NCBI GenBank assembly: GCA_943349825.1
Contig: CALQZQ010000001.1
Coordinates: 34,157-98,156, forward strand
Length of the DNA stretch: 64,000 bases
Source of the DNA: Candidatus Peribacteria bacterium
GTDB lineage: Bacteria; Patescibacteriota; Gracilibacteria; UBA1369; 2-02-FULL-48-14
Direction: 5' to 3'
Part shown: positions 37,074 through 61,604 of the stretch, piece after piece
How positions within the stretch are numbered: position 1 is the stretch's first letter
How the letters are laid out: each line of letters opens with the position of its first letter
Made by a program: the position numbers and the translations under genes
The notes under the pieces: model-generated
Told to the model about the DNA's origin: nothing
Database searches by the model: none
What the model saw: the letters and a program-made list of their open reading frames with translations, nothing else

Positions 37074-37379
37074 CGTGAATCTTGAAACCCCAAAACATAA
37101 GAATAGAAGTTCGTGCACCTTTTGTTCAGCATGGAGCGCTCTGAAAAAGTTCATGAACTTTTTCTCTGCTTCCTTTCATGGTTAATGCTTCTCACACGGT
37201 GCACGAACTCCTCTCTGTTGTGGAGTTTCAAACGCTCTTTCCGCCGTTTGGTACACACTGGTTTCTGAAACATAAACCTTAAGGAAGAAGGTAGGCGGAT
37301 CATGCATCCGAGTACCTTCGCTCCTGGCTTCAGAAACCAGTGTGTACCTTAGAGCGAAATGAGGGTTTCAAGATTCACG
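37074..37379. repeat. Two-arm palindromic element (family 1), MITE-like or structured RNA
   Basis: 17-bp terminal IR 37074-37090/37363-37379; arm 1 IR 37108-37119/37198-37209; arm 2 20-bp IR 37250-37269/37329-37348. Confidence 0.85.
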
Positions 37380-37446
37380 TAAAAATAAGGTTGACTAAGG
37401 GGCATGGCCTCTCTTATACTCCACTTCGCTTAAGTGACTTTTTTAT

Positions 37447-37668
37447 ATGGCTCGACCCGCAAATTTCTGGGCTTCCGCTGATCAGAATGAATCTTCTGAG
37501 AAGCGTGTGGCACGTTTCAAACAATGGTTCAACCGTTCTCGTGTTGGTGATCTCGTGAAAGACCGACGTTACCACAAGAAGGCTTTGACTCCTCGTTTGG
37601 TTCGTATTGGTGCTCTCATGCGTGAAGGTTTCCGTACTGAGAAAGAACGAAATAAGTTCTATCAATGA
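37447..37668 (+). CDS. rpsU: 30S ribosomal protein S21 (divergent)
   Basis: 73 aa, basic; ESSEKRVARFK..RRYHKK matches the bS21 pattern ES.E.ALRRFK..R.YY.K. Confidence 0.7.
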   Translation: MARPANFWASADQNESSEKRVARFKQWFNRSRVGDLVKDRRYHKKALTPRLVRIGALMREGFRTEKERNKFYQ

Positions 37669-38468
37669 CCTTGGGTCAGGTTCTCAATTCTGCACAAAAA
37701 GTACAGCTCCGCACTGAAATGGAGCTGTTTTTGAGTCATCTTTTAGGCTGTACTCGCTTGGATTTGATCGCTCACAGTGAACGCGAAGTCCCGGTGGAGC
37801 ATTTGGCGGCGCTTCAGGCGGGGTGGCTCCGCATTCAAGACGGCGTTCCGGTGGCCTATTTGACACATTCCAAGGAATTTTATGGCCACGATTTTTATGT
37901 GGATGAGCGGGTTTTGGTGCCTCGGCCCTGCACGGAATTGCTGGTGGATTGGGTGGCCGCGGTGGCACAGGCGCGCGTGCTCGAAGTGGGCACTGGAAGC
38001 GGAGCTATAGCCGTTTCTTTGAAGCTCAAAAGGCCTGATTTACAGGTGGTGGCAACGGACGTCAGCCCTGAGGTCTTGGAAGTTGCGAGTAAAAATTGTG
38101 TTCAACTGGGCGCGGAAGTGGAATTGCTGGAATCCGATTTGTTGAAAGATCTGCCTCAGGGCGATTTTGATACGCTCGTGACCAACCTTCCTTACATTGG
38201 CACGGCTTCGCACGATGCCATCGCTGAAAATGTACAAAAACACGAGCCGGGTTTGGCTCTTTTTGGGGGAGAAAATGGACTTCAGCTCTATGGGCGACTT
38301 TTTCAGCAAGTTCAGGGCTGGTCTTTCCGCTTCATTTTGGGAGAGATTGGCTTCTCTCAGGCGCAGGACTTAAAAGCCTTGGCGGAGCGGCTTTTGCCAG
38401 GTTGGAAACTCACGCTGCGCCAGGATTTAGAAGGCCTTGATCGGCATTTTCTCCTGGAAAGGAACTGA
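37665..38468 (+). CDS. prmC: Release factor glutamine methyltransferase
   Basis: PVAYL..EFYG..VLVPRP.TE, EVGTGSGAIA, NLPYI; next to prfA. Confidence 0.92.
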   Translation: MTLGQVLNSAQKVQLRTEMELFLSHLLGCTRLDLIAHSEREVPVEHLAALQAGWLRIQDGVPVAYLTHSKEFYGHDFYVDERVLVPRPCTELLVDWVAAVAQARVLEVGTGSGAIAVSLKLKRPDLQVVATDVSPEVLEVASKNCVQLGAEVELLESDLLKDLPQGDFDTLVTNLPYIGTASHDAIAENVQKHEPGLALFGGENGLQLYGRLFQQVQGWSFRFILGEIGFSQAQDLKALAERLLPGWKLTLRQDLEGLDRHFLLERN

Positions 38469-38492
38469 TTTTTCTGATAAAACGAGCCTACT

Positions 38493-39557
38493 ATGCGTGA
38501 GAAATTAAAACAGATCGCCGACGAATACGCTGCTTTGGAAATCCAAATGGGGGATTCGGCCGTGATTGCGAATCAACCGGAATATCAAAAACTCAACCGT
38601 CGCCGCAAAGAATTGGAGCGTACGGTGGAGCTTTATCATGAATTGGTGCGTTTGGATCAGCAGATTACGGACAGCGAGGCGCTGATGAACGATTCCGATG
38701 AAGAAATGCGTGAAATGGCAAGAGAGGAGCTTCAAAATTCGAAGGAAGAATTAGAAAAAGTGGAAGAGGAACTCAAATTGGAATTGGTGCCCAAGGATCC
38801 GATGGATCTGAAAAACTGCATCATGGAAATTCGTGCGGGAACTGGTGGGGACGAAGCGGCTCTTTTTGCCGAAGAACTCTGCCGCATGTACTTGCGTTAT
38901 GTGAAGGACAAGGGCTACCAAACGGAAATGATCAGCCAAAGTGAAGGAGAAAAGGGTTTGAAAGAAGTGATTTTTAAAGTGATTGGGGAGGGGACCTATG
39001 GACGCATGAAGTACGAAAGTGGGGTGCACCGGGTGCAGCGTATTCCCGAAACGGAAGCCAAAGGCCGCGTGCACACGTCGGCGGCTTCGGTGGTGGTGCT
39101 GCCGGAAGTGGACGAATACGAACTGGACATTCGCGATCAAGATTTGCGCATCGACGTGTACCGCTCTGGGGGAAGTGGAGGGCAAAGTGTGAACACCACG
39201 GACAGTGCGGTGCGCATCACGCATTTGCCGTCGGGCTTGGTGGTGACGTGTCAGGACGAACGTTCTCAGCTCAAAAATAAGATCAAAGCCATGGGTGTGC
39301 TGCGTGCACGTTTGTATGCTTTGGAGGAAGAAAAACGTACGAAGGAACTTGGGGAATCGCGACTTTCTCAGATTGGAACGGGCGATCGCAGCGACAAAAT
39401 CCGCACCTACAATTTCCCTCAAGACCGCGTGACCGATCACCGCATCGGTCAAAATTTCAGCAATTTGCCTGGCATTATGGATGGCGACATCGACGATATT
39501 ATCGATGCGTTGCAACTCGACGATCAAACCCAAAAACTTTCTAGAACTGCGGAGTAA
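38493..39557 (+). CDS. prfA: Peptide chain release factor 1
   Basis: [18 protein letters not shown] (PxT), GGQ, RTYNFPQ. Confidence 0.97.
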
Positions 39558-39777
39558 AGTTCTGGAAGCCTTGCTGCTCCATGATCTCGGGGAGGTTTTT
39601 CATGGCGTCTTCTACGCCTTGGTAGAGGACGAAACTTCCCCAAATGGTGAGACCGAGGAAAATGAGTGTGGGGAGCATGCCCAGTACCACTCGCGTGATG
39701 CGGTAGTGACGGGTGCGTTTCATTTCTTCTTTTTGCAGTCCGATGAGTTCTTGCAGGAGGGCTTCGGTGGTGGCCAT
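39541..39777 (-). CDS. Small single-TM hypothetical protein
   Basis: 78 aa with a central hydrophobic helix; fills the prfA-tatD gap. Confidence 0.55.
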
Positions 39778-39813
39778 GTTGTGCGGTTAGATTTCGCACG
39801 CTATTCTACACCC

Positions 39814-40578
39814 ATGTGGATCGATACGCATTGTCATCCGTTCGTGAATGCCAGCTTGGCTGAGCAGGAAGCGATTTTGGCTCGTGCTCGCGAGGCTGGC
39901 GTTGGGCAAATGATCGTGGTGGGTTTTGATAAGGTGGCGAATAGGGAAGCGGTGCGCATGGCGGAGGCTCACGAAGGGCTTTGGGCTGCGGTAGGCGTGC
40001 ATCCGTGTGAGTGTGCGGCTTGGACCGATGAAGAAGAGGTTTTTATCCGTGAAGCGGCCAAAAATCCCAAGGTGGTGGCACTGGGCGAGATGGGGATGGA
40101 TTTTTACCACAAGGATTTCCCCAAAGACGTGCAGGAAGCCACGTTCCGTCGCCAAATTCGCTTGGCCAATGAGTTGGATTTGCCCTGCATCGTGCATTCG
40201 CGCGAAGCGGCGGAAGACACGCTGCGCATTTTATTGGATGAAGGCGCGAAGCGCGCGGTTTTCCACTGTTACAGCTACGACTATGAGTTTGGAAAGAAAG
40301 TCTGGGCCGCCGGGTATTACACTTCATTCAGCGGGGTTTTAACTTATCCCAATGCCAAGCCCATTCAGGAGGCGGCCGCGAAGGGCCCCTTGGACCTAAT
40401 GCTGATTGAAACGGATTGCCCTTGGCTCGCCCCCCAATCCATCCGCGGCAAACCCAACGAAATGGCCTTTGTGGGGGAAGTGGGCAAGAAGCTGGCGGAA
40501 CTCCGGGGTGTGGACTCAGAGGAGATTCAAGAGATCTGCCTTCGGAATGCAAATCGCTTATTCGTGAAGAATACTTAA
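39814..40578 (+). CDS. tatD: TatD-family DNase
   Basis: IDTHCH, GVHP, GEMGMD, VHSR, FHCY, ETDCPWLAP. Confidence 0.93.
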   Translation: MWIDTHCHPFVNASLAEQEAILARAREAGVGQMIVVGFDKVANREAVRMAEAHEGLWAAVGVHPCECAAWTDEEEVFIREAAKNPKVVALGEMGMDFYHKDFPKDVQEATFRRQIRLANELDLPCIVHSREAAEDTLRILLDEGAKRAVFHCYSYDYEFGKKVWAAGYYTSFSGVLTYPNAKPIQEAAAKGPLDLMLIETDCPWLAPQSIRGKPNEMAFVGEVGKKLAELRGVDSEEIQEICLRNANRLFVKNT

Positions 40579-41553
40579 GCACTCTTCTGCAGATTGAGGG
40601 CGCGCTTCTGGTTCGTCTTCTAAGATGTGGTCCAGCATATTAACGAAGCCTTTTACGTGTTGATTCCCGCTCAATGCCAGCCAGTTAGGGCTTTGCCTAA
40701 TGATCTCCCAGTAGCCTTCTTTTTTAAAGCCTAGGCGTACTCTTTTTGAAAGGAGCTTGGCTAAGGTTCTTCCCGTATCGTCGTAGTCATCCCAGCCACG
40801 TACTTGCAGCGGTTTATCTTTAGCCTGTTGTCCTTGAGGGACACCGCCCAGAATATAGGTTGCACCTATGACGCCTATGCTAAAAAGATCGGAAGTGGCG
40901 TGTATTCTTCCTTCACAAGCTTCCGGAGCTAAAAACCAAGCTTGGCCCAAGGGGCCTTCTCCTTGAAGCTCGTCGATTCTTCCCACGCCGTCTGGATCAA
41001 TAAAAGTGCCCGCAGGCATGGTGTTTCTAAGCGATATATCTCTATGAGCCAGTCCCCGTTTGGCTAAAATATTCCAGTTTTCAATCAAACGTAAAGTGTG
41101 TACCATCCCCCGATCTATGTCGGTAGCGGCATCTGCCTTTTCCTTAAATTGATGAGATAAATCCTTTCCATCTACGTAGCTGTAGAGCACCAGATTGTCT
41201 GCTCCCACTTCTTGACTGACGAATTTTTGAATGGTCCCGTCGGGGATGCTTGCCTCCTCGTGCAGTGTTCTCATCGCTCTATCTAAATCCTGTTTTTCTT
41301 TTTTGCTTAAATCTTTGAATACTTTTAGGGTGAATAATTCTCGAGTTTCCCAATCCATCACTAACCATGCGGTGCCGAAAGCACCTTCACCCATCCTCCC
41401 TAAGATCTTAAGTCGCTTACCTTCGAATTGAATCTCCGAATTCGGCTTGTAGATTCTTCCTTGATATCGAAAATGGTTTCGGGTGTCTCCACGTGCATGA
41501 TCCACATGGGAGTGCTCTACCCCTAAATCTTTGAGATACTTGTCAGCAGGCAT
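40558..41553 (-). CDS. Hanks-type protein kinase with atypical motifs
   Basis: GEGAFG, TLKVF, HRDISLRN, IDPDG, LAPE, SDLFSIG, PEARP. Confidence 0.85.
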   Translation of the reverse strand: MPADKYLKDLGVEHSHVDHARGDTRNHFRYQGRIYKPNSEIQFEGKRLKILGRMGEGAFGTAWLVMDWETRELFTLKVFKDLSKKEKQDLDRAMRTLHEEASIPDGTIQKFVSQEVGADNLVLYSYVDGKDLSHQFKEKADAATDIDRGMVHTLRLIENWNILAKRGLAHRDISLRNTMPAGTFIDPDGVGRIDELQGEGPLGQAWFLAPEACEGRIHATSDLFSIGVIGATYILGGVPQGQQAKDKPLQVRGWDDYDDTGRTLAKLLSKRVRLGFKKEGYWEIIRQSPNWLALSGNQHVKGFVNMLDHILEDEPEARPQSAEECLSILHE

Positions 41554-41603
41554 GTATATATTATATAATATATACCGTCTTTGTCAATAACGCTCACATT
41601 CAT

Positions 41604-43427
41604 CTAAGCCGCCTGTCTAAAAAACTCCGGATTTTTGGCCAGGAACTCTGTGCGAGCGGTGCCGGTGGCTTTTTGAAGAATTTCGATGCGGTCCAGCTCC
41701 CAGTTGCAGACGCGATGAGTGATGAGAGAAATGGATTGAGGTGCCAAGTCTTTGGCCATCTTGAATTCCAGTTGGCGTTCTTTCACTTTGTGGTGCATCC
41801 CAGAACCGTCGGCTTCTTCAAAGGCATGAGTGTCTACGCAGATGAGCATGACTTCAACTCGTACCCCTTTTTTTGTCACTCCCAGAAGAGAAATTTTGGG
41901 ATAACGAGCGTGTTTGAAGTCTTTTTCTATAACGAATTGGCCGGGTTCGAGATCGGTAGGTTTTAAGGTTCCTGCTTCTAGTTCAGCAGTTCTATTGGTT
42001 TCCATTCCTAAGCCGTGGGCGGTAGCGACGAGGTTTTCGTACACCATATTTTGTAATTCTTCATCGCTTTCGAGTTCGGTGGAAGTGATCCCGGCCAAGA
42101 TTCCACGGGTTCGGATTTCATCGGGGAAACGATCGGGGCCTACATCTCCGTAACTTTTCCCAAAATATTTATAAACACGAGATTTTTCCATTTTGTCGTC
42201 CACTTCCACAAGGTGGACCAGTTTTTGATATTCTGCCACACTTCGTGCGGTGCGGAGTTTTCTACAGCTTAAAATGGCACCGTTCCCAGTGGCTTCAAAC
42301 TTTTTACCCGTGAATTTTAGCGTTGGGTAGCGCATTTTTTGATTGGGCTGCTGACTTTCAAACATGTTTTCGAGGATTTTTGCATCGGCGTCTTTCACTT
42401 TGTTCGTGGCCTCAATGTTTTGGATCCGACGATTTTGAATGAAATGGATGAAACCGATCACCCACAAGATTTGGGCATCGTTGACGTCGCGTACGTCATC
42501 TCCGGTGTAGAGGTATTCTAAAATTTCATAGGGTGATTTGTTGCGCAGGGATTGATTGAGGTTGGGGGCTTCGTTGTCTTCTCCTTGGATTTGACCAGTG
42601 GCTTCGTAGTGCCGAATGAGGTCTCTTACGGAAAGCATGATGTCGCGAATGAAGTCGCCGGCCCAGTGTAAACTTTCTTGGATATCTGCTTCGAGGCTAG
42701 TCACGTTGTAGCCTTGGATCTCTTTGGGTTGAAGAGGCCTTCTAAGTAACGAGCTAAGTTCTGTTCCACCACTATGGACTTGAAGGTAGCTGGATACGGC
42801 ACGAACTGTTGGGGTTTTTAGAATTTCGGTTTCCGGTATTGCTCCCAAAAGGTATAGGACAGCTGTACTGGCTTTGTCCCTGGGGAGTGCCTCTTTTCCT
42901 ACTAAGATCTGTATTCTTTTGAAGGCTTCCCGGACCTCTAGAGGGGAGAAACTGCGACCTCCTTCTAAGTGAAACTGTGCGTTCTTGAAAATAGAGACCA
43001 AGCGGTCTCGTAAATGAGCTCTTTGAGCCAGGCCGATTTTATGGCGGATTCCATCTCTTTCTTCCTTGATGTCTGGAGCGGTTTTTTCTATCGCTGCCGA
43101 AATATTGTTTGCCGTTTCATCGAGGACTGTCTTCACCATTTCTTCATTTGGCGCTATGGTGATCAGCAACTGACGATGTCCCAGCTCTCTTTGGAGATCT
43201 TTTCCTCCCAATAAAATCCTGTAAATGTCGTTGGTACGAACGGCTTCAGGGAGAACTTCTGGTTTTTGGTCTACGATGGCGCCGGTTTGTTTGCCCAAAT
43301 CTGTAAGCAGTTGAACCTCACTTTCACCCACTCCCACGCTAAAATGGCGCCCAAGAACGGCTCTGCCAGAAAAACCGGCTAGCCCTTGGAGTAAGTCGGA
43401 ATAGTCCTCTGCGCCTTCGGTTGACAT
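41604..43427 (-). CDS. Hypothetical protein with a degenerate C-terminal RelA/SpoT-like nucleotidyltransferase domain
   Basis: DKMEKSRVYK, PDEIRTRGIL, YPKISL, VEVMLI and HHKVKE occur in RelA synthetase order. Confidence 0.45.
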   Translation of the reverse strand: MSTEGAEDYSDLLQGLAGFSGRAVLGRHFSVGVGESEVQLLTDLGKQTGAIVDQKPEVLPEAVRTNDIYRILLGGKDLQRELGHRQLLITIAPNEEMVKTVLDETANNISAAIEKTAPDIKEERDGIRHKIGLAQRAHLRDRLVSIFKNAQFHLEGGRSFSPLEVREAFKRIQILVGKEALPRDKASTAVLYLLGAIPETEILKTPTVRAVSSYLQVHSGGTELSSLLRRPLQPKEIQGYNVTSLEADIQESLHWAGDFIRDIMLSVRDLIRHYEATGQIQGEDNEAPNLNQSLRNKSPYEILEYLYTGDDVRDVNDAQILWVIGFIHFIQNRRIQNIEATNKVKDADAKILENMFESQQPNQKMRYPTLKFTGKKFEATGNGAILSCRKLRTARSVAEYQKLVHLVEVDDKMEKSRVYKYFGKSYGDVGPDRFPDEIRTRGILAGITSTELESDEELQNMVYENLVATAHGLGMETNRTAELEAGTLKPTDLEPGQFVIEKDFKHARYPKISLLGVTKKGVRVEVMLICVDTHAFEEADGSGMHHKVKERQLEFKMAKDLAPQSISLITHRVCNWELDRIEILQKATGTARTEFLAKNPEFFRQAA

Positions 43428-43465
43428 GGAGAATTAATGTTTTGGCGCTAAGCTTACAATAGTTT

Positions 43466-44767
43466 CTACAGCTTTGGCAAGCTTTTCAGATCTGATAGCT
43501 TCTGGATTTTTAGGCCCATTTTCTCTACGGCCTTGCCGCGTTCTTTGTCTTTGTAGCTGGGGCGGACTTCTCCGGTGAGGCTGATTTCGCCGAAAAAGAC
43601 ACTGCCTATGGGAAGAGGTCTTTTTTGAATGCTGGAGGCGATGGCTGCACATACGGCCAGATCTGCGGTGGGATCGCTGAGGGTGAGACCGCCGGTGATG
43701 TTGATGTAGACGTCTTGGTCGGCCAGATTCAGGGTGGTGTGTTTTTGCAGGACGGCGATGAGGAGCTCCAGACGGTTTCTGTCGTAGCCGCTGGCCATGC
43801 GTTTGGGATAGCCAAAGTCTGTATGGTGAACGAGGGCCTGGACTTCCATGAGGAGAGGCCGATTGCCTTCCATGCTCATGGTGAGCGCGCTGCCGATGGC
43901 GGCTTCTGGGCGGTTTTTGAGCACGCGTTCGCCGGGATTTTTCACTTCCGTGAGGCCTTCGCCGGTCATTTCGAAGAGCCCCACTTCGCTTACGGGGCCG
44001 AAACGGTTTTTGAGCGCGCGGAGCATGCGCAGTTCATGATCACGTTCGCCTTCTAGGAGAAGCACCGTGTCCACGAGGTGTTCCAGTACTTTAGGGCCGG
44101 CGATGTTGCCGTCCTTGTTCACGTGGCCAATGAGCAGGGTGGGAATTTTAGCGGTTTTAATGGTGTTCATGATCATTTCCGTGACATAACGGACTTGGCT
44201 GATGCTGCCCGCTACACCTGGAATTTCTGCCGAAGACATGACTTGGATGGAATCGATCACTAGGAACTCCGGTTTTTCGTTCGCGATGGTGGTGAGTATG
44301 TTTTCGAGCGAAGTTTCGTAGAGGATTTGCAGATTGTTTTCACTGGCACCGAGGCGACGCGCGCGGTCTGCGATTTGATCCACGGATTCTTCGCCGGTGA
44401 TGTAGAGCACGCGCTCTTTTTGAGCAGCCATGCGGCTGACCACTTGCAAGGTGAGGGTGGATTTCCCGATGCCGGGTTCGCCGGAAAGGAGAATGAGGCT
44501 GCCTTCCACGAAGCCGCCGCCCAGCACTTGGTCGAATTCGCTGAGGCCGGTGACGAGGCGAGCTTTGGGTGCTGCCTGGTCGGCGAGGCGGCGAGGCTTT
44601 TCTGCGGCGGTGCGCGGGATGCCGTGGCTAGAAAGGGTGTCGCTTTTGCCCACGTTCACCACGTCTTCCACAAAAGTATTCCACTCTCCGCAGCTCGGGC
44701 ATTTCCCTTGCCACTTGGAACTTTCTTGGGAGCAGTTTTGGCAGACGTAGATGGTTTTGAGTTTCAT
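43466..44767 (-). CDS. radA: DNA repair protein RadA/Sms
   Basis: CQNC..CPSC zinc finger, GEPGIGKST, KNRFG. Confidence 0.96.
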   Translation of the reverse strand: MKLKTIYVCQNCSQESSKWQGKCPSCGEWNTFVEDVVNVGKSDTLSSHGIPRTAAEKPRRLADQAAPKARLVTGLSEFDQVLGGGFVEGSLILLSGEPGIGKSTLTLQVVSRMAAQKERVLYITGEESVDQIADRARRLGASENNLQILYETSLENILTTIANEKPEFLVIDSIQVMSSAEIPGVAGSISQVRYVTEMIMNTIKTAKIPTLLIGHVNKDGNIAGPKVLEHLVDTVLLLEGERDHELRMLRALKNRFGPVSEVGLFEMTGEGLTEVKNPGERVLKNRPEAAIGSALTMSMEGNRPLLMEVQALVHHTDFGYPKRMASGYDRNRLELLIAVLQKHTTLNLADQDVYINITGGLTLSDPTADLAVCAAIASSIQKRPLPIGSVFFGEISLTGEVRPSYKDKERGKAVEKMGLKIQKLSDLKSLPKL

Positions 44768-44855
44768 GGCCTTAGGGTAGTATATACTCACCCTATGTGT
44801 CCAGCCTAAATTCAGCCCTTGCCGCTCCAGAGGTGTTTTGCTAAAGTCTCCGCGT

Positions 44856-44931
44856 GGATCGGTAGCTCAGTTGGTAGAGCAGAAGACTCTTAATCTTTTG
44901 GTCGCGGGTTCGACTCCCGCCCGGTCCACCA
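44856..44931 (+). tRNA. tRNA-Lys(CTT)
   Basis: Complete cloverleaf, anticodon loop CT-CTT-AA, TTCGA, encoded CCA. Confidence 0.95.
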
Positions 44932-44946
44932 TTTTAACTTTACGCC

Positions 44947-45504
44947 ATGTCCGATCTACTCACGGTCATCTCTGGAATGTGTTTCATTCGTCCTTTGCCG
45001 CCTCTGCGCAGCACACCGAATGTGGAGTTCAATGTGATTCCTGTTTTGGATCAGCTCTCAGCCATCGACCGTGTGCGTCATGCGCCGGGGGCTTACAGTC
45101 CTTCTGTGCCTGGTACGGAGTTGCGGCCGTGGTACATGCATCCGGATCAAGAGGACAATTTATTGGTGTGTGAGGGAAGACGCGTGGTGGAACTCTACAA
45201 TAAAGAACATGGCACCGTGGAAACTTTTGAAGTCACTCCCAATCGCTTGATGCAGTGCAAACCGAATCTTTCCGAATGCCGTGTGATTTACGAAGGCCCG
45301 CACATTTTCGGTTGGCCCAAAAACGTTTTCCATCGTGTATACAGCCCAGAAGGCAGTTTCTCCATCAATTTTGCTCGGCACTACGAGGGTTTTGACATGT
45401 CGACCAACTTCAACATTTATGAACTCAACACCGATACCGGTGATTATTCCGTAGTGCGAGAAGGCCACCTGGATCAACCCAGCAACTTAGTGATGGGTGA
45501 CTAG
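44947..45504 (+). CDS. Cupin-fold protein (RmlC-like family)
   Basis: PWYMHPDQEDNL...FHRV two-motif cupin pattern. Confidence 0.65.
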   Translation: MSDLLTVISGMCFIRPLPPLRSTPNVEFNVIPVLDQLSAIDRVRHAPGAYSPSVPGTELRPWYMHPDQEDNLLVCEGRRVVELYNKEHGTVETFEVTPNRLMQCKPNLSECRVIYEGPHIFGWPKNVFHRVYSPEGSFSINFARHYEGFDMSTNFNIYELNTDTGDYSVVREGHLDQPSNLVMGD

Positions 45505-45548
45505 GGCTTGAGCTCGCGGGCTCTTCTGTGTAAAGTTCCTGCGGTTAC

Positions 45549-45623
45549 GGCAAGGTGGCGGAGTGGCTACGCAGCAGTTTGCAAAACTGTACCACATGGG
45601 TTCGAGTCCCATCCTTGCCTCCA
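45549..45623 (+). tRNA. tRNA-Cys(GCA)
   Basis: Cloverleaf GGCAAGG/CCTTGCC, anticodon GCA, U73, CCA. Confidence 0.95.
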
Positions 45624-45644
45624 TTCATTTTCGGATTCCACCGC

Positions 45645-45730
45645 GCCTGGGTGGTGAAATGGTATACACGCGAGACTTAAAATCTTGTGGCCGCAAGGCC
45701 GTGTGGGTTCGAGCCCCACCCCAGGCACCA
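45645..45730 (+). tRNA. tRNA-Leu(TAA)
   Basis: Cloverleaf with long variable arm GGCC-GCAA-GGCC, anticodon TAA, CCA. Confidence 0.95.
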
Positions 45731-46684: not shown

Positions 46685-47106
46685 GCGCGGAACATTTTTG
46701 TACGACTGAAGTAAAAACCAAGCAATGCGGCGCTGCCTCCCAGTATCAAATGAGGTATGTTGACTTCTAGGCGGGTCAGCCAGCCAGACACGGCGACTTC
46801 TTGAAAGAAAACGCCCAAGTCCAGATAACCCTTTCCAATCAAAAGCCCCATCACTCCATCGAGACAATAGGCGAGGCCATACCATTTGAAGTAGAAGATG
46901 GTGGCTCCACGTGAGTAAAGACCAGCTGAAAGTGCCCATAGAGCGGAAGCTAGGTGAAGGCCATCGTCGATGGGATCCAGTTTGAAGAGGCCGAACATGA
47001 GCCCGTTTTCATCGTGAATGAAGGGGAGTGCATTCATGGCAACCACTCCGAAAAATAGGAAAGAATAAAACCAAGCGAGCTTTTGCAGGCGGGAGTACTT
47101 TTTCAT
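46681..47106 (-). CDS. Four-TM membrane protein (DUF4383-like)
   Basis: LMFGLF...DDGLHL...NIPHL pattern with four hydrophobic segments. Confidence 0.65.
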   Translation of the reverse strand: MKKYSRLQKLAWFYSFLFFGVVAMNALPFIHDENGLMFGLFKLDPIDDGLHLASALWALSAGLYSRGATIFYFKWYGLAYCLDGVMGLLIGKGYLDLGVFFQEVAVSGWLTRLEVNIPHLILGGSAALLGFYFSRTKMFRA

Positions 47107-47164
47107 AGTGGGGCGTGAAGAATTGTGCTAATACTAAAGCACCTTCCACTCCTCTACAACTCCT

Positions 47165-50728: not shown

Positions 50729-50746
50729 ATTATTTTATTTTTATTT

Positions 50747-50941: not shown

Positions 50942-50962
50942 TTTCTCCCCTTCAATAGAGGC

Positions 50963-52901: not shown

Positions 52902-53072
52902 TGAGGAACCTGTGAAAAAGTACATTCAGCATGTCTCAAGGGATCTTTTTTCGCAAGTCGTCGTTAATTCTCCTCGACGTATCCATCTGATACGCCTTCG
53001 TCGTCTTGCCTAGACTTGCGAAAAAATCTCTACCTTTTTCCAAAGCAGAAGTACTTTTTCACAGGTTCCTTA
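52902..53072. repeat. Single-arm palindromic element (family 2) filling the clpP-alr junction
   Basis: 20-bp IR 52904-52923/53051-53070; inner IR 52946-52959/53013-53026; tip hairpin CGTATC-CATCT-GATACG. Confidence 0.85.
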
Positions 53073-53744
53073 GCGGCTGGTCACAATCGCGTCGATGAGG
53101 CCGTATTTCTTGGCTTCTTCGGCGGTCATGAAATTGTCGCGATCCGTATCCGCTTCCACTTTGGCGAGTTTTTGCCCCGTGTGTTTGACCAAAATGCCGT
53201 TCAAGAGGTTCTTGGTGCGGATGATGTGGTCGGCGTGAATGCGGATGTCTGTGGCTTGGCCTTCTGTTCCTCCCAAAGGTTGATGAATCATGATTTCAGC
53301 GTTGGGAAGGGAGAAGCGTTTGCCTTTTTGTCCTCCAGTGCAGATGATGGCGCCCATGGAAGCAGCCATTCCCATCACCACGGTGGAAACGTCGGGTTTC
53401 ACGTATTGCATGGTGTCGTAAATGGCGAGACCCGCGGTCACGTGGCCCCCGGGGGAGTCGATGTACATGATGATGTCGCGTTTGGCATCCTCGTTTTCTA
53501 AGAAGAGCATTTGCGCGATCAAGAGCCCTGCCATATTGGATTCCACTTCGGTGAACATGAACATCACGCGATCCTTTAAGAGGCGAGAGTAAATGTCGTA
53601 GGCGCGTTCTCCTTCGTGCGATTTCTCAATCACGGTGGGAACGAGCATTCCGGTGATCTCTTTGGAGATGCCGGTGTTGTTGGATAAACCTTTAACCTGA
53701 CTTTTAAGAAGACTCGAACGAGTAAAATGAAAGAAGTTGGACAT
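53070..53744 (-). CDS. clpP: ATP-dependent Clp protease proteolytic subunit
   Basis: [35 protein letters not shown]; N-terminal propeptide or later start. Confidence 0.96.
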
Positions 53745-53854
53745 AGGCGTGGTTAAGACTCAAAGATTTTAGCACCGATTGTTTTTGAAAGGCAGGCCGG
53801 ACGGATTGACGCAATTTTTATTTATGTTTAGACTGGACGCTCTTTATTGTGTGT

Positions 53855-54295
53855 ATGGTGGAAAGAACTGGTATTTGTTTCGGACTTCCAGAGAAAGAGA
53901 CGGCTGATCTGCAGGCTTTTATAGAAAGAAGTGAACGCACGCTGCGTTTGGCCATTTGGCCCGATTTGCGTACTTTTAAGGCTTATGGGTTGAGCCGCTA
54001 TATTGAACCCATAAGGGAAAAGGTGTCTTTGGTGGTTTTGCATAGAGATTTGGCGAGTGATCCTGTGGTGACGGGTGAATTGCCGCGTTTGTTAGAGGAG
54101 GTGGTGGCACTTTTCCCTGAAGCGCAGATCATTTTCGCGACCCATGTTCCTTTTCGGCTCGAAAGGGAGTTGGAGCGTGAGTTTCCTGAGGATCTTCCCC
54201 CTGAAGTCTTTGGTGTTTTAGCCTATGCTTCGGCTTATTCCCCAGAACATCTGCATTCCCTGGCCCTTACTTTTAAGATTGAAGACCCGGTTTAG
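53855..54295 (+). CDS. Hypothetical protein, possible degenerate receiver-like alpha/beta fold
   Basis: GICFG..SLVVLHRD..FPEAQIIFAT resembles REC beta1/beta3/beta4. Confidence 0.4.
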   Translation: MVERTGICFGLPEKETADLQAFIERSERTLRLAIWPDLRTFKAYGLSRYIEPIREKVSLVVLHRDLASDPVVTGELPRLLEEVVALFPEAQIIFATHVPFRLERELEREFPEDLPPEVFGVLAYASAYSPEHLHSLALTFKIEDPV

Positions 54296-54316
54296 ACGCT
54301 TTCCCGGAAAATCCTC

Positions 54317-54344
54317 TTGACTCTAAGACTAGGAAGGCTAAAAT
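54317..54344 (+). promoter_or_regulatory. rRNA promoter
   Basis: TTGACT-16 bp-TAAAAT; boxA-like TGACCTTTGACA downstream. Confidence 0.75.
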
Positions 54345-54536
54345 CGTCTGGCACACTTCCCTGTAAAAAGGGTTCGAGTGCTTCAATTGACCTTTGACAG
54401 TTCAGATCTAATAGAGAGTTCCCAAATTTCAGGTTTTAATCTTCGGGCAGAAACTTGTTTCTGCAACGAATGAAATCAAAATTTTTGTAACTTTTTTATC
54501 TTTTTTTAAAAGATAAGAGAGCCATCAAATTCTACT

Positions 54537-55991
<1,455 letters not shown>

Positions 55992-56130
55992 TAAGGAGTT
56001 AACAGGGCTTCGAAAGAAGCTATGTAACCATTCCTAGGTCGTCTCTGTCTTCGGACAGAGCTGGTCTGCCGCGAGGCATGACCACCCTGGAGTTTGGTCT
56101 CTCTACTAGATCTGGATTGTCATGGTCAAT

Positions 56131-56158
56131 CAAAGAAAGTCCTTTGGGGCTTTTTTTC
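56131..56158 (+). terminator. Terminator after the 16S gene
   Basis: AAAGAAAGTCC-TTTG-GGGCTTTTTTT. Confidence 0.7.
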
Positions 56159-56210
56159 GTTGTTTAAATTTACTATTTTGTATAGATTAACAATAATTTA
56201 TCGCCTCTTC

Positions 56211-56543
56211 ATGGACACGTTCAAGCAATGGCTTGCTCAAGTTGCCTCGAATCCTAATGAACTTTTGTTTGTTTTTTTAATTTTTCTTAGTATTTTTTGC
56301 TTTGTTTTGACTGGGTTGCTGATGGGCAATCCTAAACGCTTTGCCTCGTCTTTCTCTGGTGTGCCCCTTAGACATGCGATTTATAATGAGATCGCCAATA
56401 TTAAAGTTAAACCGCCAAAGAACCCTGTTCCATTGATGGTTATAGTGAATGTTCTTTTTACTTTTGGTCTTGGGCTGGGGTGTCTTATTGGGGCTTTGAT
56501 GATGAAAGGCGTTCTCATTGTTGTGTCTTTGCCACAAAATTAG
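56211..56543 (+). CDS. Small two-TM hypothetical protein
   Basis: Two hydrophobic segments; low GC. Confidence 0.5.
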   Translation: MDTFKQWLAQVASNPNELLFVFLIFLSIFCFVLTGLLMGNPKRFASSFSGVPLRHAIYNEIANIKVKPPKNPVPLMVIVNVLFTFGLGLGCLIGALMMKGVLIVVSLPQN

Positions 56544-56636
56544 CTATGTCACTCATTTTGTGTAACTTTTTTTTGCGAGCCTTGTTTAAGGGAATGACAT
56601 GCACGTCTTTCTACTAGTTTTTTAACCCCCAAAACT

Positions 56637-58076
56637 ATGTTGCTCAAACGTTTTATTACTATAGCGCTTTTACTTGCGCTTTCCAGCAGTGCAGTGATGC
56701 CGCTGGCTGCTTTTGCAGAAGATGGTGAAGATACTGCTGCCCAGGCACAAGCCGATGCTGATGCCGCCGCTGCTGCCCAGGCACAAGCCGATGCTGATGC
56801 TGCCGCTGATGCTGCCGCTGCCGCTGCTGCTGAATCTGATGTAGTAGTGGAAGTTGTTTCTGATGAGGCTCAAGACGCTGTAGATGCAGTGGCCGACTAT
56901 GCTGGAGAAAGTGAAGGTGAAGTTCAGGTGACGGAGGAAGGCACTACGGTGACTTCTGAAGAAGTGGATGAAGAGGCCTTTACTACGGAGATGCAAGAAG
57001 ATTTGGTGGCTTCAACTGAAGCTCCAGACCAATTTTTTGTGGCAGTGATGTGGGGTGCCTTTAGCGACGGTGACACCGACCTGCAAAGATCAAGTGAAGA
57101 CACATCGACCATCGCTTCCACTACTTGGGACGGAATGATCACTATAGATAATGATGCTGGTGAAGGAGTTTTCTCTCGTCCAGTGAAGACCCTTTTGTTT
57201 GAACGTGATCAGGATTCTCTGGATTTCGAAAACATGACTATCAACGAATTACCTTTTGTTTCCACCATCTACAATCATCACGATGGGGTTCTCATTAAGG
57301 TTCGAACGGATCTCGACAGTTCTGACTCAGGAAAAATCTCCTTTGAGACCGCTTTCAGCACTGATGTGACCGCTGTTTATTTGGCTGATCTTGTGGGTGC
57401 CGGCAGTGCCGAATTCACTTATGGTGACTATAAGGTGGTCATGACAGTGCTTTCCAGAGAAGACTGGATCAATGCGCAGGGCTCCGGCTCCAGCTCAACA
57501 GGTACTCGACCCACGGATGCTGAACCAGGTGCTTGGTATGAAGGGTTCATGAATTATAACTTGGCTCACAACATCATCAGTGGTTATGCGGATGCCAATG
57601 GAAGGTTCAATGGAAAAGTAGGTCCTGGGGACACTTTGACTCGTCTTCAACTCCTCAAGATTGTTTACGAAATTTCTGATAACACCTGTGACCCTAAAAC
57701 AGTAGCGCAGGATTCTTCTACGGACTGGATGGGGGACAATTGGGCACGTGGCTATGTGGAGTGTACAGAGGGGCTTGGCCTCACTTTACTGGATGATGTG
57801 ATTCAGAGTGATTTGAGCAAAGCACAGGCGCCAGCCTTTCGTTGGGAAGTAGTGGTGCTTGCTTGTGAACTGCTTGGTCTGGAATCTGCAGGAGCACCTG
57901 ACACTACTCTTTCGGATGTTGCCAACAGTGGGTTGGATCCTGTCTTCATCGACATGATCGATGAACTGGTTGACCTGGGAGTCATCTCTGGAAATCCAGA
58001 TGGCACTTTTAGACCTTACAACACTGTCAATCGAGCCGAAGCCTTTAAGATTTTGGCCCTCCTTGACGTCCTCTAA
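56637..58076 (+). CDS. Acidic S-layer-homology (SLH) domain protein
   Basis: Signal peptide; 36-nt Ala/Asp tandem repeat near 56736-56810; IISGYAD..LTRLQ and VISGNPDGTFRPYNTVNRAE. Confidence 0.85.
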   Translation: MLLKRFITIALLLALSSSAVMPLAAFAEDGEDTAAQAQADADAAAAAQAQADADAAADAAAAAAAESDVVVEVVSDEAQDAVDAVADYAGESEGEVQVTEEGTTVTSEEVDEEAFTTEMQEDLVASTEAPDQFFVAVMWGAFSDGDTDLQRSSEDTSTIASTTWDGMITIDNDAGEGVFSRPVKTLLFERDQDSLDFENMTINELPFVSTIYNHHDGVLIKVRTDLDSSDSGKISFETAFSTDVTAVYLADLVGAGSAEFTYGDYKVVMTVLSREDWINAQGSGSSSTGTRPTDAEPGAWYEGFMNYNLAHNIISGYADANGRFNGKVGPGDTLTRLQLLKIVYEISDNTCDPKTVAQDSSTDWMGDNWARGYVECTEGLGLTLLDDVIQSDLSKAQAPAFRWEVVVLACELLGLESAGAPDTTLSDVANSGLDPVFIDMIDELVDLGVISGNPDGTFRPYNTVNRAEAFKILALLDVL

Positions 58077-58096
58077 TTTACTTAAGGTTGTATACG

Positions 58097-58135
58097 TCGG
58101 GGCTGCTCCGGGGAGGGAGTGGCCCCGATTTTTTG
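58097..58135 (+). terminator. Intrinsic terminator of the SLH gene
   Basis: TCGGGGCTGCTCC...GGAGTGGCCCCGA followed by a T-tract. Confidence 0.75.
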
Positions 58136-58136
58136 T

Positions 58137-58407
58137 TAGGAGCTATCTCCACAAAATTGCTCTAGATGGAAGCACTCCATTTCTTTCAGGCTAAGGAATG
58201 ACAACGAAGGTGTGCCAGAGGCACATCAAGGAGGAATGACGCAAGAATGAATGAAATGGGAAGCTTCCCTTCGGGTTGATAAGTAAGTAGCTCATCTGCT
58301 TTGTCATTTGTCGCTCACGCACCACAGGGTGCGTCACGCTCCTCTTTCCGTGCATCTAAACTACTTACTTATCAACCATCAGAGCAATTTTGTGGAGATA
58401 GCTCCTA
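58137..58407. repeat. Two-arm palindromic element (family 2), MITE-like
   Basis: 27-bp terminal IR TAGGAGCTATCTCCACAAAATTGCTCT 58137-58163/58381-58407; arm 1 about 58168-58268; arm 2 17-bp IR 58274-58290/58361-58377. Confidence 0.88.
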
Positions 58408-59076
58408 TATGCAAAGTTGGTAGCCCAGGCAAGGAATGGTTCGGATCAAGGGGTCGGTGCGTTTCACGTAGAGTTTTTTTCTGAGTCGACTCACGGTTAC
58501 GTCCACGGTGTTGGACTCCACATAAGTGTTTTGATCCCACAAGTGATCGATGATCATGTCGCGACTGATGATTTGCCCCGGATGTTTGAGCAGTAGCTCC
58601 AGGAGAAAATATTCCTTTTTAGTGAGGACACTGGCTTGTTTCCCCACGCGCACCAGGCGCTGGCTGCGATCGAGCGTGAAGGCTCCCAGGTTGATTTGTT
58701 TGATGTTGTCCCCTGGCGGTGCTTTTTGAATCACGTCTTTCACCAACAAGGGAATTTCGTCGATGCTCAAGGTTTGATCCACTAGAATGCTTTGTCGTGC
58801 CAGGGAATGAAATTGGCGCTCTTTGAAGAGGAAAGGATCCACTTTGGTGAGAAAAATGAGAGGCAATTTGGGGCTGACATTCAACAGAAATGGCAGGAGG
58901 GCTTTCCAATCCTTTGCTTCTAAAATGTGGGGGAAGACGATGGCGTCCGTGGAAGGGCACCAGTCTTGCACGAGACTGCCTGGGGTGCAGACCAAACTTT
59001 TGATGTTTTGCCGCTGGAGGGCGCCGCGCAGTAAAGTGCTGTGGAGCAGGCGAGGGGTGATGATGAGCGTGTGCAT
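58405..59076 (-). CDS. OmpR/PhoB-type winged-helix regulator with a pseudo-receiver domain
   Basis: LTKKEYFLLELL..PGQIISR..LW..NTVDVTVSRLRKKL..IRTI..GY; acidic pocket absent. Confidence 0.85.
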   Translation of the reverse strand: MHTLIITPRLLHSTLLRGALQRQNIKSLVCTPGSLVQDWCPSTDAIVFPHILEAKDWKALLPFLLNVSPKLPLIFLTKVDPFLFKERQFHSLARQSILVDQTLSIDEIPLLVKDVIQKAPPGDNIKQINLGAFTLDRSQRLVRVGKQASVLTKKEYFLLELLLKHPGQIISRDMIIDHLWDQNTYVESNTVDVTVSRLRKKLYVKRTDPLIRTIPCLGYQLCI

Positions 59077-59277
59077 GTGGGAGGGGTGTCAGTGGATTCT
59101 AGCTTAAGATGGCAGTGGAGTTTTGCCTAGCGCGGCCGACTTTTTCCAGATCAAAATCGCGCTGTCGGAGTTCCGACGACACCCTTTTTGCTGGCAGCTG
59201 TCATCAGCTCCTGACAACAGCTGTTGCTTTACAATTTAGTCTTTTCCCCACACACTGGGCTCGATAACACTACTGCC

Positions 59278-59997
59278 ATGTGTATCGATAAGCTCTCCAA
59301 ACTCGGATTTTCCGAGAAAGAAGCTCAGGTCTATTTGATGTTGTTTAGACTGGGCCCTTCTCATGTTAGTGCACTGGCTCAGCGTTTGAATATGAAACGC
59401 GTGACTGTCTACGGCATTTTGGATATTTTGGCCGGGCGAGGGCTTGTGAATGTGGTGGATACGAATATCGGACGGCGCTATGTGCCCCAAGATCCTTCGT
59501 GTCTTTTGGAACATCTGGAAGAAGAAAGGATCATTTTGCAGCGCAAGGTGGAGATGGCGGAAGAATGTGTGCGTGAATTGGAAAATCCTTTTTTTGCCAC
59601 TATCTCTGAACTCAAACGGGTGCGTTTTCACGAAGGGTTTCAGGCTGTGAAAAAGGCTTTACTGGAGTGTTTTTTGGAATCGACTCCTTTGAACGCCTTG
59701 ATTTCTGTGGACGATTCGAGCTCTGCAGGGAGGTGTCTTGCGGAGCTTCTCTTGGAGCGCGGTAAACAAGCCCTTTCTACAATTTACCGCTCTGCGGAAG
59801 CTCAGCTTTTTTCGGAGGGATCGCTCTTGGTTCAAGAAGACACCGTGGGCTTTTTGGCTCAACGCGGTGAGTTGGAACTCATGGTGATTCGAGATCCTTT
59901 TTATGCTCAGTATGTGAAGCAGGTTTTGTTTTCGCCTTATTTCTCAAAAAAATCTGTGGGCGCCACAATTTCCAGAGCTACTCCGGTGAAAGGGTGA
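59278..59997 (+). CDS. TrmB-family transcriptional regulator
   Basis: LSKLGFSEKEAQVYL..LG...LAQRL..KRVTVYGIL..L..RGLV; VRFHEG. Confidence 0.85.
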   Translation: MCIDKLSKLGFSEKEAQVYLMLFRLGPSHVSALAQRLNMKRVTVYGILDILAGRGLVNVVDTNIGRRYVPQDPSCLLEHLEEERIILQRKVEMAEECVRELENPFFATISELKRVRFHEGFQAVKKALLECFLESTPLNALISVDDSSSAGRCLAELLLERGKQALSTIYRSAEAQLFSEGSLLVQEDTVGFLAQRGELELMVIRDPFYAQYVKQVLFSPYFSKKSVGATISRATPVKG

Positions 59998-60617
59998 ATG
60001 GCGTTCCACTTCCAAGCGTGCAAAAAGAATTCACCGTGGCCTTTGTGTTTGCGCTGATACTCGTTGTCAAAATGGCGATCGCCGTAATCTTTGTCCAGAA
60101 GTAGCGGATTGCCGATCATGGCAAGGTGCTGGCGAATTTGGTGTTTGCGGCCGGTTTCAATCTGAACTTCGAGCAGGGAGACGTTGTCCATCAATTTGAT
60201 GGTTTTGTAGTGCGTGATGGCGGGTACTTTTTTGTCCGTGGTGCGGGCTACCAGGGGAAAATCGATGGTGCCTTCGCGTTCCTTTGGAACCCATTTGACC
60301 AAGGCCAAGTAGGTTTTTTTGGTAGTGGGCTCTTTGAACATGTCCACCAGTTTTTGCCGGTCACGCGGAAACTTGCCGAAAAGAATGACTCCGGAGCTTG
60401 GACGGTCCAGACGGTGAAGGGGGTAAGGCTTGTAGCCTTTTTCTTCCCGCAGCGCCCAGTTGCGGAGCTTACCCTGTAAAGTGCGGTGTTCGGGAATGCG
60501 CGGGGCGGGCACGGTGGCGAGGCCACTAGGTTTGTTTACGGCCAAAAAATACTCGTCTTCGTAGAGGATTTCTGGATCTGCGTTTTTATTGACCGCTGAG
60601 GTCTTGGAGTTTTTCAA
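59937..60617 (-). CDS. RluA-family pseudouridine synthase
   Basis: ILYED..VNKPSGL, HRLDRPSSG, KTYLALV, TGRKHQIRQH, LHA. Confidence 0.92.
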   Translation of the reverse strand: MKNSKTSAVNKNADPEILYEDEYFLAVNKPSGLATVPAPRIPEHRTLQGKLRNWALREEKGYKPYPLHRLDRPSSGVILFGKFPRDRQKLVDMFKEPTTKKTYLALVKWVPKEREGTIDFPLVARTTDKKVPAITHYKTIKLMDNVSLLEVQIETGRKHQIRQHLAMIGNPLLLDKDYGDRHFDNEYQRKHKGHGEFFLHAWKWNAIHPFTGVALEIVAPTDFFEK

Positions 60618-61146
60618 GGGGTTTGCCGTTCAGGTTTATGATGACAGTCATTTTTCGGTCGCTGTCGATGTTGTTTTCCACGGTTCCACGAATTTGTTCC
60701 ACCATACGAGGATCGTCACATTCACCGCCGGACATCGTTTCGCCGCTGATTTCCACCTCTACAGTGCCGTCTTCAATGGTGACGCTATCCACGGTGAGGG
60801 TCGATTGGTAGAGGGCATTGTAGAGGCCGGATTCGCCTAAGAATTGGTCTTTGTTCGAGAATAGGTTCTCCAGAGCCATCTTTATGCGCTCTTTTACGCT
60901 CACGTTGCCCGTGACAGTGACCGTGGTGAGAATTTCTGAATCGCCGCAGCCCACTAGGGGACCGCTGGCTCCGTTGTCCCCCATGGCAATGTAGGCAATT
61001 TCCATACTGCTCTCTAAAGTCGGATTGGTATCCGTATCCTCTTCAGAAGCCTCGGTAGGAGTTTCGATGGGTTCTGGTATGGGCACGCCACTACAAGCGG
61101 TCAAAAGGAGACCGCTGAGTAGTAGGATGGAAAGTCGAGGATGCAT
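60586..61146 (-). CDS. Lipoprotein with a GerMN-like domain
   Basis: LLTAC lipobox; ALENL..VTIEDGTVEVEI..GG.CD...QIRGT. Confidence 0.7.
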   Translation of the reverse strand: MHPRLSILLLSGLLLTACSGVPIPEPIETPTEASEEDTDTNPTLESSMEIAYIAMGDNGASGPLVGCGDSEILTTVTVTGNVSVKERIKMALENLFSNKDQFLGESGLYNALYQSTLTVDSVTIEDGTVEVEISGETMSGGECDDPRMVEQIRGTVENNIDSDRKMTVIINLNGKPLEKLQDLSGQ

Positions 61147-61445
61147 TATTTACGTTTAGCCTTTTTGCCGGCTGGCTTCTTGGCTACGGGCATCATATCA
61201 CAAGAACAGGGGTTGCTGCTACAGTCTTTGCAAGCACTGTCCATGGTGCTGCAGCTGTCGCCGCTGCCGCAGGAATTGCCGGAGAGCATCCATTTGAGAC
61301 CGCTCACTACGAGAATGCTGGGCCAGAGGTAATTCCAGGTTTCATCAGGAACAACATCGAAACGTTGTAGGAGCACAACGGCACCAACAACAAAGGCAAC
61401 GAGACCCCACCAAAGGCGATCATCTTTTGAGCAACAGGACATCAT
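61146..61445 (-). CDS. Small two-TM protein (LiaF/DUF5668-like) with a Cys-rich tail
   Basis: WWGLV..VGAVVLL...LWPSILVVSG; 8 Cys; Lys-rich end. Confidence 0.7.
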   Translation of the reverse strand: MMSCCSKDDRLWWGLVAFVVGAVVLLQRFDVVPDETWNYLWPSILVVSGLKWMLSGNSCGSGDSCSTMDSACKDCSSNPCSCDMMPVAKKPAGKKAKRK

Positions 61446-61501
61446 AGAGGGCGTGGTTAATGTGCATCCATTATCGTCTAAAAAAAAGTTTTTGCAAGGG
61501 C

Positions 61502-61604
61502 GTGGTTCCTAAGAGAGGGTGTTCACCCGGGAGCGGGAAAGGACGGATCATGATTCGTCCTTTCCCTTCCTAGTTTATGGGTTCCACCCTCTCTTAGGAA
61601 CCAC
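61502..61604 (-). ncRNA. Single-arm structured element (family 1), candidate small RNA
   Basis: Perfect 20-bp IR 61502-61521/61585-61604 with inner hairpin; minus-strand TTGGAA-16-TAAAGT promoter-like sequence ends 4 nt from the IR. Confidence 0.55.

Follow-up and report, generated by a model that had tools for sequence, protein, structure and literature searches.

The 64,000-nucleotide stretch of DNA analysed here (the window), taken from contig CALQZQ010000001.1 of a Candidatus Peribacteria genome of 1.25 Mb and 98.8% completeness (G000; G, C and L numbers denote genomes, contigs and loci), contains three hairpins, built on the motif AGGAAG...CGCTCC, that belong to a dispersed repeat family, the subject of this report. 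An earlier reading of the letters alone, called here the original prediction, had placed them at 37250-37348 (plus strand), 37209-37108 (minus strand) and 61604-61502 (minus strand), and we found all three at these sites with the motifs that had been described. Their outer stems, said to share no sequence, are in fact unrelated to one another and paired over 12-20 bp. Folded as RNA, the three copies gave z = -9.8, -5.7 and -10.9, respectively (200 shuffles each), and their opposite strands fold similarly well (z = -11.2, -6.6 and -9.8). The pattern AGGAAG-N15-45-CGCTCC occurs four times in the window against 0.26 expected, a number reached in 0 of 100 shuffles. The fourth match, at 33044-33082, is not a member of the family: it lies in a coding stretch, lacks the CATG tip and has no match to the covariance model used below.

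We call the three copies the alpha, beta and gamma modules. A module is ~105 nt long and is made of nested helices, with an outer stem of 12-20 bp followed by a short helix (P2), by an unpaired segment of 8-12 nt (J) which contains (C/T)A-TAAAC, by a helix of three pairs that contains a bulged A (P3, GGA against TCC) and by a hairpin (P4) with a TCATG tip; two or three additional bases (CGC) are present on the 3' side.

The first two of the three hairpins are not independent copies. Alpha and beta, which have GAAGCAT-AAAC, P3, the tip and CGC in common, are homologous and make up the diverged right and left halves of a single unit of 309 bp. An alignment of four units shows how they are built: a terminal inverted repeat (TIR) at either end and, between the two, first the beta module (minus strand), then a 37-nt linker and last the alpha module (plus strand). 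In G000, the usual length of the unit is ~305 bp. The unit 37073-37381 is missing between the same two genes in 5 of 5 genomes of the same genus, and in G005 the empty site reads ...GAAAATAAGGTTGAC, with the two flanks of the unit abutting there. The first base of the element (37073) is also the third base of the upstream stop codon TAG (37071-37073), which is TAA at the G005 empty site. The insertion at this position fell inside the stop codon and the upstream gene was not lengthened.

A search with nhmmer gave 12 unit loci on 6 contigs of G000, of which four are full length and eight internally deleted. The 14-nt core of the TIR, GTGAATCTTGAAAC, has 28 matches in G000 with at most two mismatches, compared with 5 for the reversed control, and it forms seven inverted pairs spaced 167-304 bp. 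Units bounded by the TIR measure 167-309 bp, and the window copy is overlapped only by chance open reading frames (ORFs) of at most 75 aa. We examined the 12-nt flanks of 15 TIR-bounded units, 7 in G000 and 8 in relatives: a direct repeat of 5-7 nt is present in 10 of them, against 4.8% of 210 mismatched-flank controls. In the contigs of four public DNA runs, junctions of other copies lie exactly at 37074 and 37378/37380, and over the modules the depth climbs from 14 to a maximum of 246; no empty-site form of the window unit was detected in these contigs. Shared TIRs, target duplications, small size, dispersed copies and presence or absence at orthologous sites, the features by which a MITE (miniature inverted-repeat transposable element) is recognised, are all found in this unit. 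As judged from its sequence, the unit has the anatomy of a MITE, with two insertion-sequence ends, no transposase gene and diverged head-to-head modules inside. A likeness between the TIR and P2-J (11 of 15 positions with one gap, by hand count) was given no weight.

In G042, G023, G021 and G004, this TIR is also found at the ends of seven elements of ~200 bp whose interiors are unrelated. By their ends, these are a second MITE family that shares the TIR with the first one. Since the same TIR surrounds unrelated interiors, it is the TIR, and not the interior, that gets mobilised. In G009 and G020, the terminal repeats have the same sequence in diverged form. Head-to-head doublets are present in G000, G009, G020, G022 and G042, and in all of them the left module lies on the minus strand and its right-hand partner on the plus strand, so that each strand holds one copy of the motif in its 3' half. 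In several doublets of G009 (L074, L075, L079 and L081), the partner module lacks exactly the inner part between J and the 3' CTCC, J being joined to the 3' half of P3; this precise loss of the inner hairpin is either recurrent or inherited.

The gamma module stands alone. It is contained in a stretch of ~140 nt bounded by the 9-nt direct repeats CACGCCCTT at 61644-61636 and 61504-61496, and it is absent from its spacer in 5 of 5 genomes of the genus; by this comparison, gamma is an insertion as well. For an epsilon copy at C3:119105, the left flank has no counterpart in relatives, hence no empty site could be read. The solo modules, which are of the gamma, delta and epsilon types, would be older or decayed relatives of the modules found in units. 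The features are collected in Table 1.

Table 1. Features of the two window elements and of related loci. Positions are those of the window unless a genome, contig or locus is named.
Feature	Position	Strand	Basis or remark
Whole repeat unit, MITE-like, 309 bp	37073..37381	.	nhmmer loci, empty sites, junctions
Left TIR, 19 nt, GCGTGAATCTTGAAACCCC	37073..37091	+	
Right TIR	37361..37380	-	unit alignment, TIR-core search
Left target-site duplication AAAATA, 6 bp	37067..37072	.	empty site in G005
Right target-site duplication AAAATA	37382..37387	.	empty site in G005
Beta module (copy 2)	37105..37212	-	fold; R1 match C1:71282-71349
Beta module parts: outer stem, 3x3 loop, P2 GCAT/ATGC, unpaired J, P3 GGA/TCC, inner hairpin tipped TTCATGAA			
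Alpha module (copy 1)	37250..37348	+	fold; R1 match C1:71421-71487, 75.1 bits
Alpha module parts: 20-bp outer stem, unpaired J (ACATAAACCTTA), P3 AGGA/TCCT, inner hairpin tipped ATCATGCAT			
Promoter-like site of downstream host gene, TTGACT-18-TATACT	37391..37420	+	10 nt past element
Gamma-bearing insertion, ~140 nt	61496..61644	-	compared with G004 and other same-genus genomes
Gamma module (copy 3), diverged solo, 20-bp outer stem	61502..61604	-	fold; R1 match, 58 bits
Promoter-like -35 TTGCAA beside gamma	starts 61497	-	
~200-bp elements with the window-element TIR, ACGTGAATCTTGAAAC	L101-L107		several with 5-7 bp flanking duplications
HNH-like gene copies	G000:C2:198828-199688 (L152:829-1689); C1:20260-21075; C3:51293-52101 (broken)		

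The three copies are genuine members of a family, but the genome holds 24 modules and not three. Throughout G000, AGGAAG-N15-45-CGCTCC has 24 occurrences, of which 17 carry the CATG tip; the reversed control has 3. For a wider search, we used a covariance model of the module core (R1; 66 positions and 17 pairs, built from 49 modules of 9 genomes). This kind of search had been proposed along with the original prediction, and it returned many more copies, including the 24 modules of G000. Of the 28 genomes of the bacterial family to which G000 belongs, 22 have R1 matches, 1-25 modules each, and every one of the 11 genera is represented. In its own genus, only 2 of 6 genomes have matches, and among family relatives as a whole the module count spans 0 to 25. 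Outside the family, none of 147 genomes of a class sample and none of 148 genomes of a phylum sample matched, both samples being scored under stricter filters than the family genomes. As far as searched, the module family is restricted to one family of Peribacteria-type bacteria of the candidate phyla radiation (CPR), which are tiny inhabitants of groundwater and lakes.

Pairing is kept in these modules while their sequence changes. Pairing extends to 84.0% of cells in the 49 seed modules, compared with 64.9% after shuffling, and two-sided changes are found in 161 cells instead of 50.7. The covariation sought at the outset is strong, with a score of 0.463 against 0.143 that was reached in 0 of 500 shuffles, slid controls all remaining at or below 0.200. 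In a second alignment, made of 24 full modules (18 of them from 11 non-seed genomes) and 8 partial reverse-strand echoes, 92.5% of cells are paired against 64.0% shuffled and the covariation score is 0.711 against 0.205; this alignment was fitted to the model, a bias in its favour. In the same alignment, the "invariant" GGA/TCC helix has G-C as its middle pair in 13 modules and A-T in 12, with no module in which these bases are unpaired; AGGAAG/CGCTCC therefore turns jointly into AGAAAG/CGCTTC. When the nine alpha copies of G000 are compared, 12 of 34 predicted pairs have two-sided changes. The outer arms drift much faster than the core: they are at random-level identity in 87% of module pairs with a core identity of 0.7-0.8 (n = 342) and in 49% of those with a core identity of 0.8-0.9 (n = 138).

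In a single case (n = 1), a module could be followed in place. An epsilon module is orthologous in G000 and G005, where it lies in the same tRNA-gene spacer. Between the two genomes, its inner stem differs at three pairs, each of them changed on both sides, and its outer stem is mostly rewritten with pairing retained, including one T-G pair on the motif strand. In G001, G003 and G004, a GC-rich hairpin follows the tRNA gene in place of this module. In this one case, module pairing is retained in place after insertion, via selection or via hairpin-templated repair. To oppose selection on structure to recent duplication, as had been done, is a false choice: the copies arose by transposition, and their pairing is also kept by compensated change, and since copies of a subtype are 80-90% identical, duplication contributes.

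That the motif matches no known RNA family, as first thought, was confirmed. With Rfam 15 at gathering thresholds, the window gave only the 16S rRNA and three tRNAs. At E <= 10, the elements matched only miRNA-type hairpin models, the best at 28.4 bits against a threshold of 100, and no Rfam model reached its threshold there, including those of self-cleaving ribozymes, the signal recognition particle RNA and 6S RNA. The stem pairs are ~96% Watson-Crick on both strands; G-U pairs make up 80 of the 2130 pairs of the motif strand (3.8%) and 108 of 2141 on the other strand, so the motif strand has no excess of them. The tips are palindromic (CATG, TCATGA, CATGCATG), and the asymmetric J, the bulged A and the CGC persist in all 11 genera. 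With respect to the neighbouring genes, one of six solos is in sense orientation and two are antisense, two lie between convergent genes and one between divergent genes. Rare G-U pairs, palindromic tips and this arbitrary gene orientation favour, as far as such features can tell, a palindrome acting at the DNA level over an mRNA element. A conserved short peptide was rejected as an explanation, by reading, as none is kept between module types.

We consider it probable, at roughly 60%, that the motif is the conserved core of a ~105-nt hairpin module carried within a family of small non-coding mobile DNA elements of the MITE type. The units would have moved in trans by means of a cut-and-paste (DDE-type) transposase which reads the terminal repeats. 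Because a transposase of this kind is not in the assembled genome, the copies of G000 are probably old and now immobile, the enzyme being lost, unassembled or unrecognised. The core (A-rich J with TAAAC, GGA/TCC helix with its bulged A, CGC and TCATG tip) would most likely be a surface that a protein recognises on a folded single strand, and the stems would need only to pair. With such a core, the stems could therefore drift or be replaced while pairing stays, even at a fixed locus after speciation. Among the possibilities offered by the original prediction, a recombinase or transposase substrate comes closest, in view of the TIRs, the target duplications and the empty sites. None of our results favours a ribozyme.

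Several points weigh against a MITE. No cognate transposase was found in a search that covered part of the DNA of the family. The target duplication is irregular, being 5-7 bp long, 0-3 nt away from the TIR and absent from 5 of 15 units. The gamma, delta and epsilon modules do not have the TIR of the unit, and gamma is flanked by a 9-nt repeat rather than by one of 5-7 nt. The epsilon cores are ~85% alike on outer stems that are wholly unrelated, and plain descent of the whole hairpin does not explain these copies well. In addition, a MITE needs only its ends; an asymmetric interior conserved over 11 genera is left unexplained by TIR-based transposition and may reflect a function as RNA or for the host. 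Finally, the RNA fold of the motif strand is better than that of the other strand in 41 of 54 modules, by 3.1 kcal/mol on average, and the unpaired bases of the motif strand are 43% A and 66% purine.

These last two observations are those expected if the module works as a structured RNA (for instance a small RNA, an RNA to which a protein binds, a signal for transcript ends or processing, or even a ribozyme) which a mobile element has spread, the head-to-head pair guaranteeing one transcribed sense copy whichever way the element lands. We regard this as unlikely, though not negligibly so. The asymmetric conserved unpaired segments and the strongly covarying pairs would suit an RNA, as would several internal loops that can be read as tandem G-A pairs, the pairing kept at the orthologous epsilon locus through a T-G intermediate on the motif strand, and the epsilon copy which occupies a site where relatives carry a GC-rich hairpin after a tRNA gene. 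Yet the Rfam matches are limited to generic hairpin models far under threshold, G-U pairs are scarce and not enriched on the motif strand, and 18-30 perfect stem pairs are unusual for functional RNAs; the six solos are variously oriented, the two window elements have no promoter-like or terminator-like site inside, and the copy number runs from none to 25 among close relatives. With a similarly minor probability, the core may be a functional folded motif in its own right, an RNA or a single-stranded DNA ligand for a protein of this bacterial family, kept throughout the history of the family while hopping between stems and carriers. Near-identical cores do sit on wholly unrelated, perfectly paired outer stems. 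If this were true, the core could be moved or rebuilt into new palindromes by an undescribed mechanism, for example insertion into existing hairpins or fold-back synthesis.

The paired stems may also be explained without selection, if palindromes are homogenised by hairpin-templated repair or template switching; covariation would then be a by-product, only the ends would matter for mobility and the core would be conserved because the copies are young. The changes between close copies are indeed all-or-none (the three differences in the inner stem of the G000 and G005 epsilon modules are two-sided, as are 2 of 2 between the near-identical copies of G015 and G019), the tips are palindromic and Watson-Crick pairs predominate on both strands. 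Correction of this kind should however erase the 8-12-nt J, the bulged A and the extra CGC, all of which persist in 11 genera, and the core is conserved even where the outer arms have fallen to random-level identity (the 87% of 342 pairs mentioned above); as a full explanation we find it improbable. More improbable still is a family akin to repetitive extragenic palindromes (REPs) or REPINs, in which the hairpins would be single-stranded DNA substrates of an HUH transposase (Y1, RAYT-type), the inverted doublet the replicative form and the tip or J a cleavage or guide site. A conserved loop on variable stems resembles the nick sites of HUH enzymes. The modules of ~105 nt with nested helices differ from REPs, which are GC-rich palindromes of 20-40 nt with a GTAG head, and the units have TIRs and target-site duplications where, to our knowledge, REP and IS200/IS605 elements have neither. 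Y1_Tnp, moreover, has no match in G000, which is 98.8% complete. What speaks for such a family is that inverted doublets of conserved hairpins with compensated changes define REPINs, according to PMC3116915.

The MITE reading calls for a mobiliser, and we looked for it in G000 and its relatives. Y1_Tnp (PF01797, RAYT-type) has 0 matches in G000 at E <= 0.01, with control matches in 6 of 14 reference genomes, and the Pfam families rve, DDE_Tnp_1, DDE_Tnp_1_3, DDE_Tnp_Tn3 and DDE_5 have no match in G000 either. An insertion sequence of the rve type with perfect 18-nt TIRs is present in G004 (L110:916-1836), together with six copies of an IS982-like element (L122/L120), some of which have an internal TGA. 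With these elements present, mobile DNA is not rare in the genus, though none of these transposases is found in G000. As parents of the unit, these elements were rejected: the TIR of the rve element is another one, TCAATAGCTTTGCATCAC, and so is that of the IS982-like copies of G004 and G024, CTAGGAGCTGTTAACATAA, which had been looked at because ends of the IS982 family begin with AC. Lone TIR matches in G004, G015 and G019 adjoin ordinary genes. The genes between neighbouring doublets or modules are housekeeping genes (HtrA and the leucyl- and methionyl-tRNA synthetases by Pfam), with an epimerase-like gene and a membrane protein assigned by reading.

A scan of 596 Gb of public contigs for the 16-nt TIR gave at least 115 stretches, mostly single chance matches; among the matches listed, inverted pairs are found only in records titled Candidatus Peribacteria or Candidatus Gracilibacteria. 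In Terribacillus records (L163, L176, L237, L189 and L216), a small terminator-like hairpin repeat has the identical 16-nt word in its loop; in a scan of this size, the match is probably a coincidence, but the word is repeated within two genomes.

A multi-copy HNH-like family was also considered as the mobiliser and rejected: modules are present where it has no copy (G008, G013, G001 and G016), and it is abundant where modules are few (52 matches against 1 module in G010, 30 against 0 in G018). The protein has ~285 aa with a C-terminal motif recognised by reading, has no Pfam match and contains stops in many copies. Its matches number 12 in G000, up to 52 in G010, 33 in G007 and 30 in G018, and from its sequence it looks like a selfish or homing gene family.

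As regards gene context, all 23 tabulated modules are intergenic, though ~89% of G000 is coding (by a crude ORF-based gene set). Both window elements stop 5-11 nt upstream of the promoter-like -35 box of the next gene, and these boxes are conserved in the empty sites of relatives; the predicted promoters lie at 37391-37420 and 61497-61470, and the first of them belongs to the host and not to the element. Inside the two window elements we found neither promoter-like nor terminator-like sites, and a search for intrinsic terminators gave 0 terminator-like sites in 36900-37600 and in 61300-61800. Elsewhere in the window, a complete 16S rRNA gene lies at 54537-55991, and no 23S or 5S rRNA gene is found at Rfam gathering thresholds in the following 8 kb; the rRNA genes appear to be unlinked here.

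Small repeats with comparable features are known in other bacteria. In integrons, attC sites conserve structure and not sequence, with extrahelical bases on variable stems of ~60-140 nt, as seen here. An identity with attC was rejected, as the paired R''/R' boxes of the attC consensus cannot be read in the modules; in contrast to attC, target-site duplications are also present and the copies are dispersed with no cassette array. In the bacterial interspersed mosaic elements (BIMEs) of E. coli, Y and Z REPs alternate, as do the alpha and beta types here. Other likenesses to REPINs and BIMEs, as described in PMC3116915, are that conserved hairpin units commonly occur as inverted doublets, singlets resemble decay products, compensated changes preserve the hairpin and copies are extragenic and family-specific; REPs are mobilised by RAYT transposases. 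Unlike REPINs, the modules have a long unpaired segment and are not short GC-rich palindromes, and G000 has no RAYT gene.

Bacterial MITEs, as portrayed in PMC3184786, have TIRs and target duplications, are small, lack a transposase and fold into long stem-loops. By the same source, Correia/NEMIS elements of Neisseria and bcr1 of the Bacillus cereus group are close to our unit in being non-coding and shorter than 400 bp, with TIRs and flanking direct repeats, and in having many dispersed intergenic copies, often just upstream of genes, which form long stem-loops; bcr1 is described there as "cruciform-like with two independent stem loops". Unlike those two, the present unit has no known parent insertion sequence. 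It also differs from described MITEs in that its interior, and not its ends alone, has been conserved through 11 genera, the core being asymmetric and the stems covarying, in that its two hairpins are diverged head-to-head copies of one module, and in that modules also occur solo, without the TIR, on unrelated stems.

The main text of the paper on complete Peribacteria genomes (PMC4736985) contains none of "transpos", "palindrom", "hairpin" or "mobile", and in listings and abstracts of the literature on Peribacteria, CPR bacteria and Peregrinibacteria no such dispersed element is described. The view that the motif was undescribed therefore stands for Rfam, where nothing comes near threshold, and for the literature searched. 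We conclude that the hairpin-module repeat is a real and previously undescribed mobile repeat of the MITE kind, that it is confined to one bacterial family and that its cargo, conserved and structured, is unusual.

CPR bacteria have tiny, gene-dense genomes which are thought to be poor in mobile DNA. In the 1.25 Mb of G000, a single family-specific element accounts for 24 structured insertions, several of which lie 5-11 nt from promoter-like sites and one of which rebuilds a stop codon; such insertions can therefore mislead gene callers and may alter expression. With its fixed core, its stems that are free to change but remain paired, its orthologues in sister species and its 0 to 25 copies per genome, the family is a natural data set on selection versus templated repair in DNA palindromes. 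Should the core turn out to be an RNA or the ligand of a protein, it would count as a new structured motif specific to the lineage.

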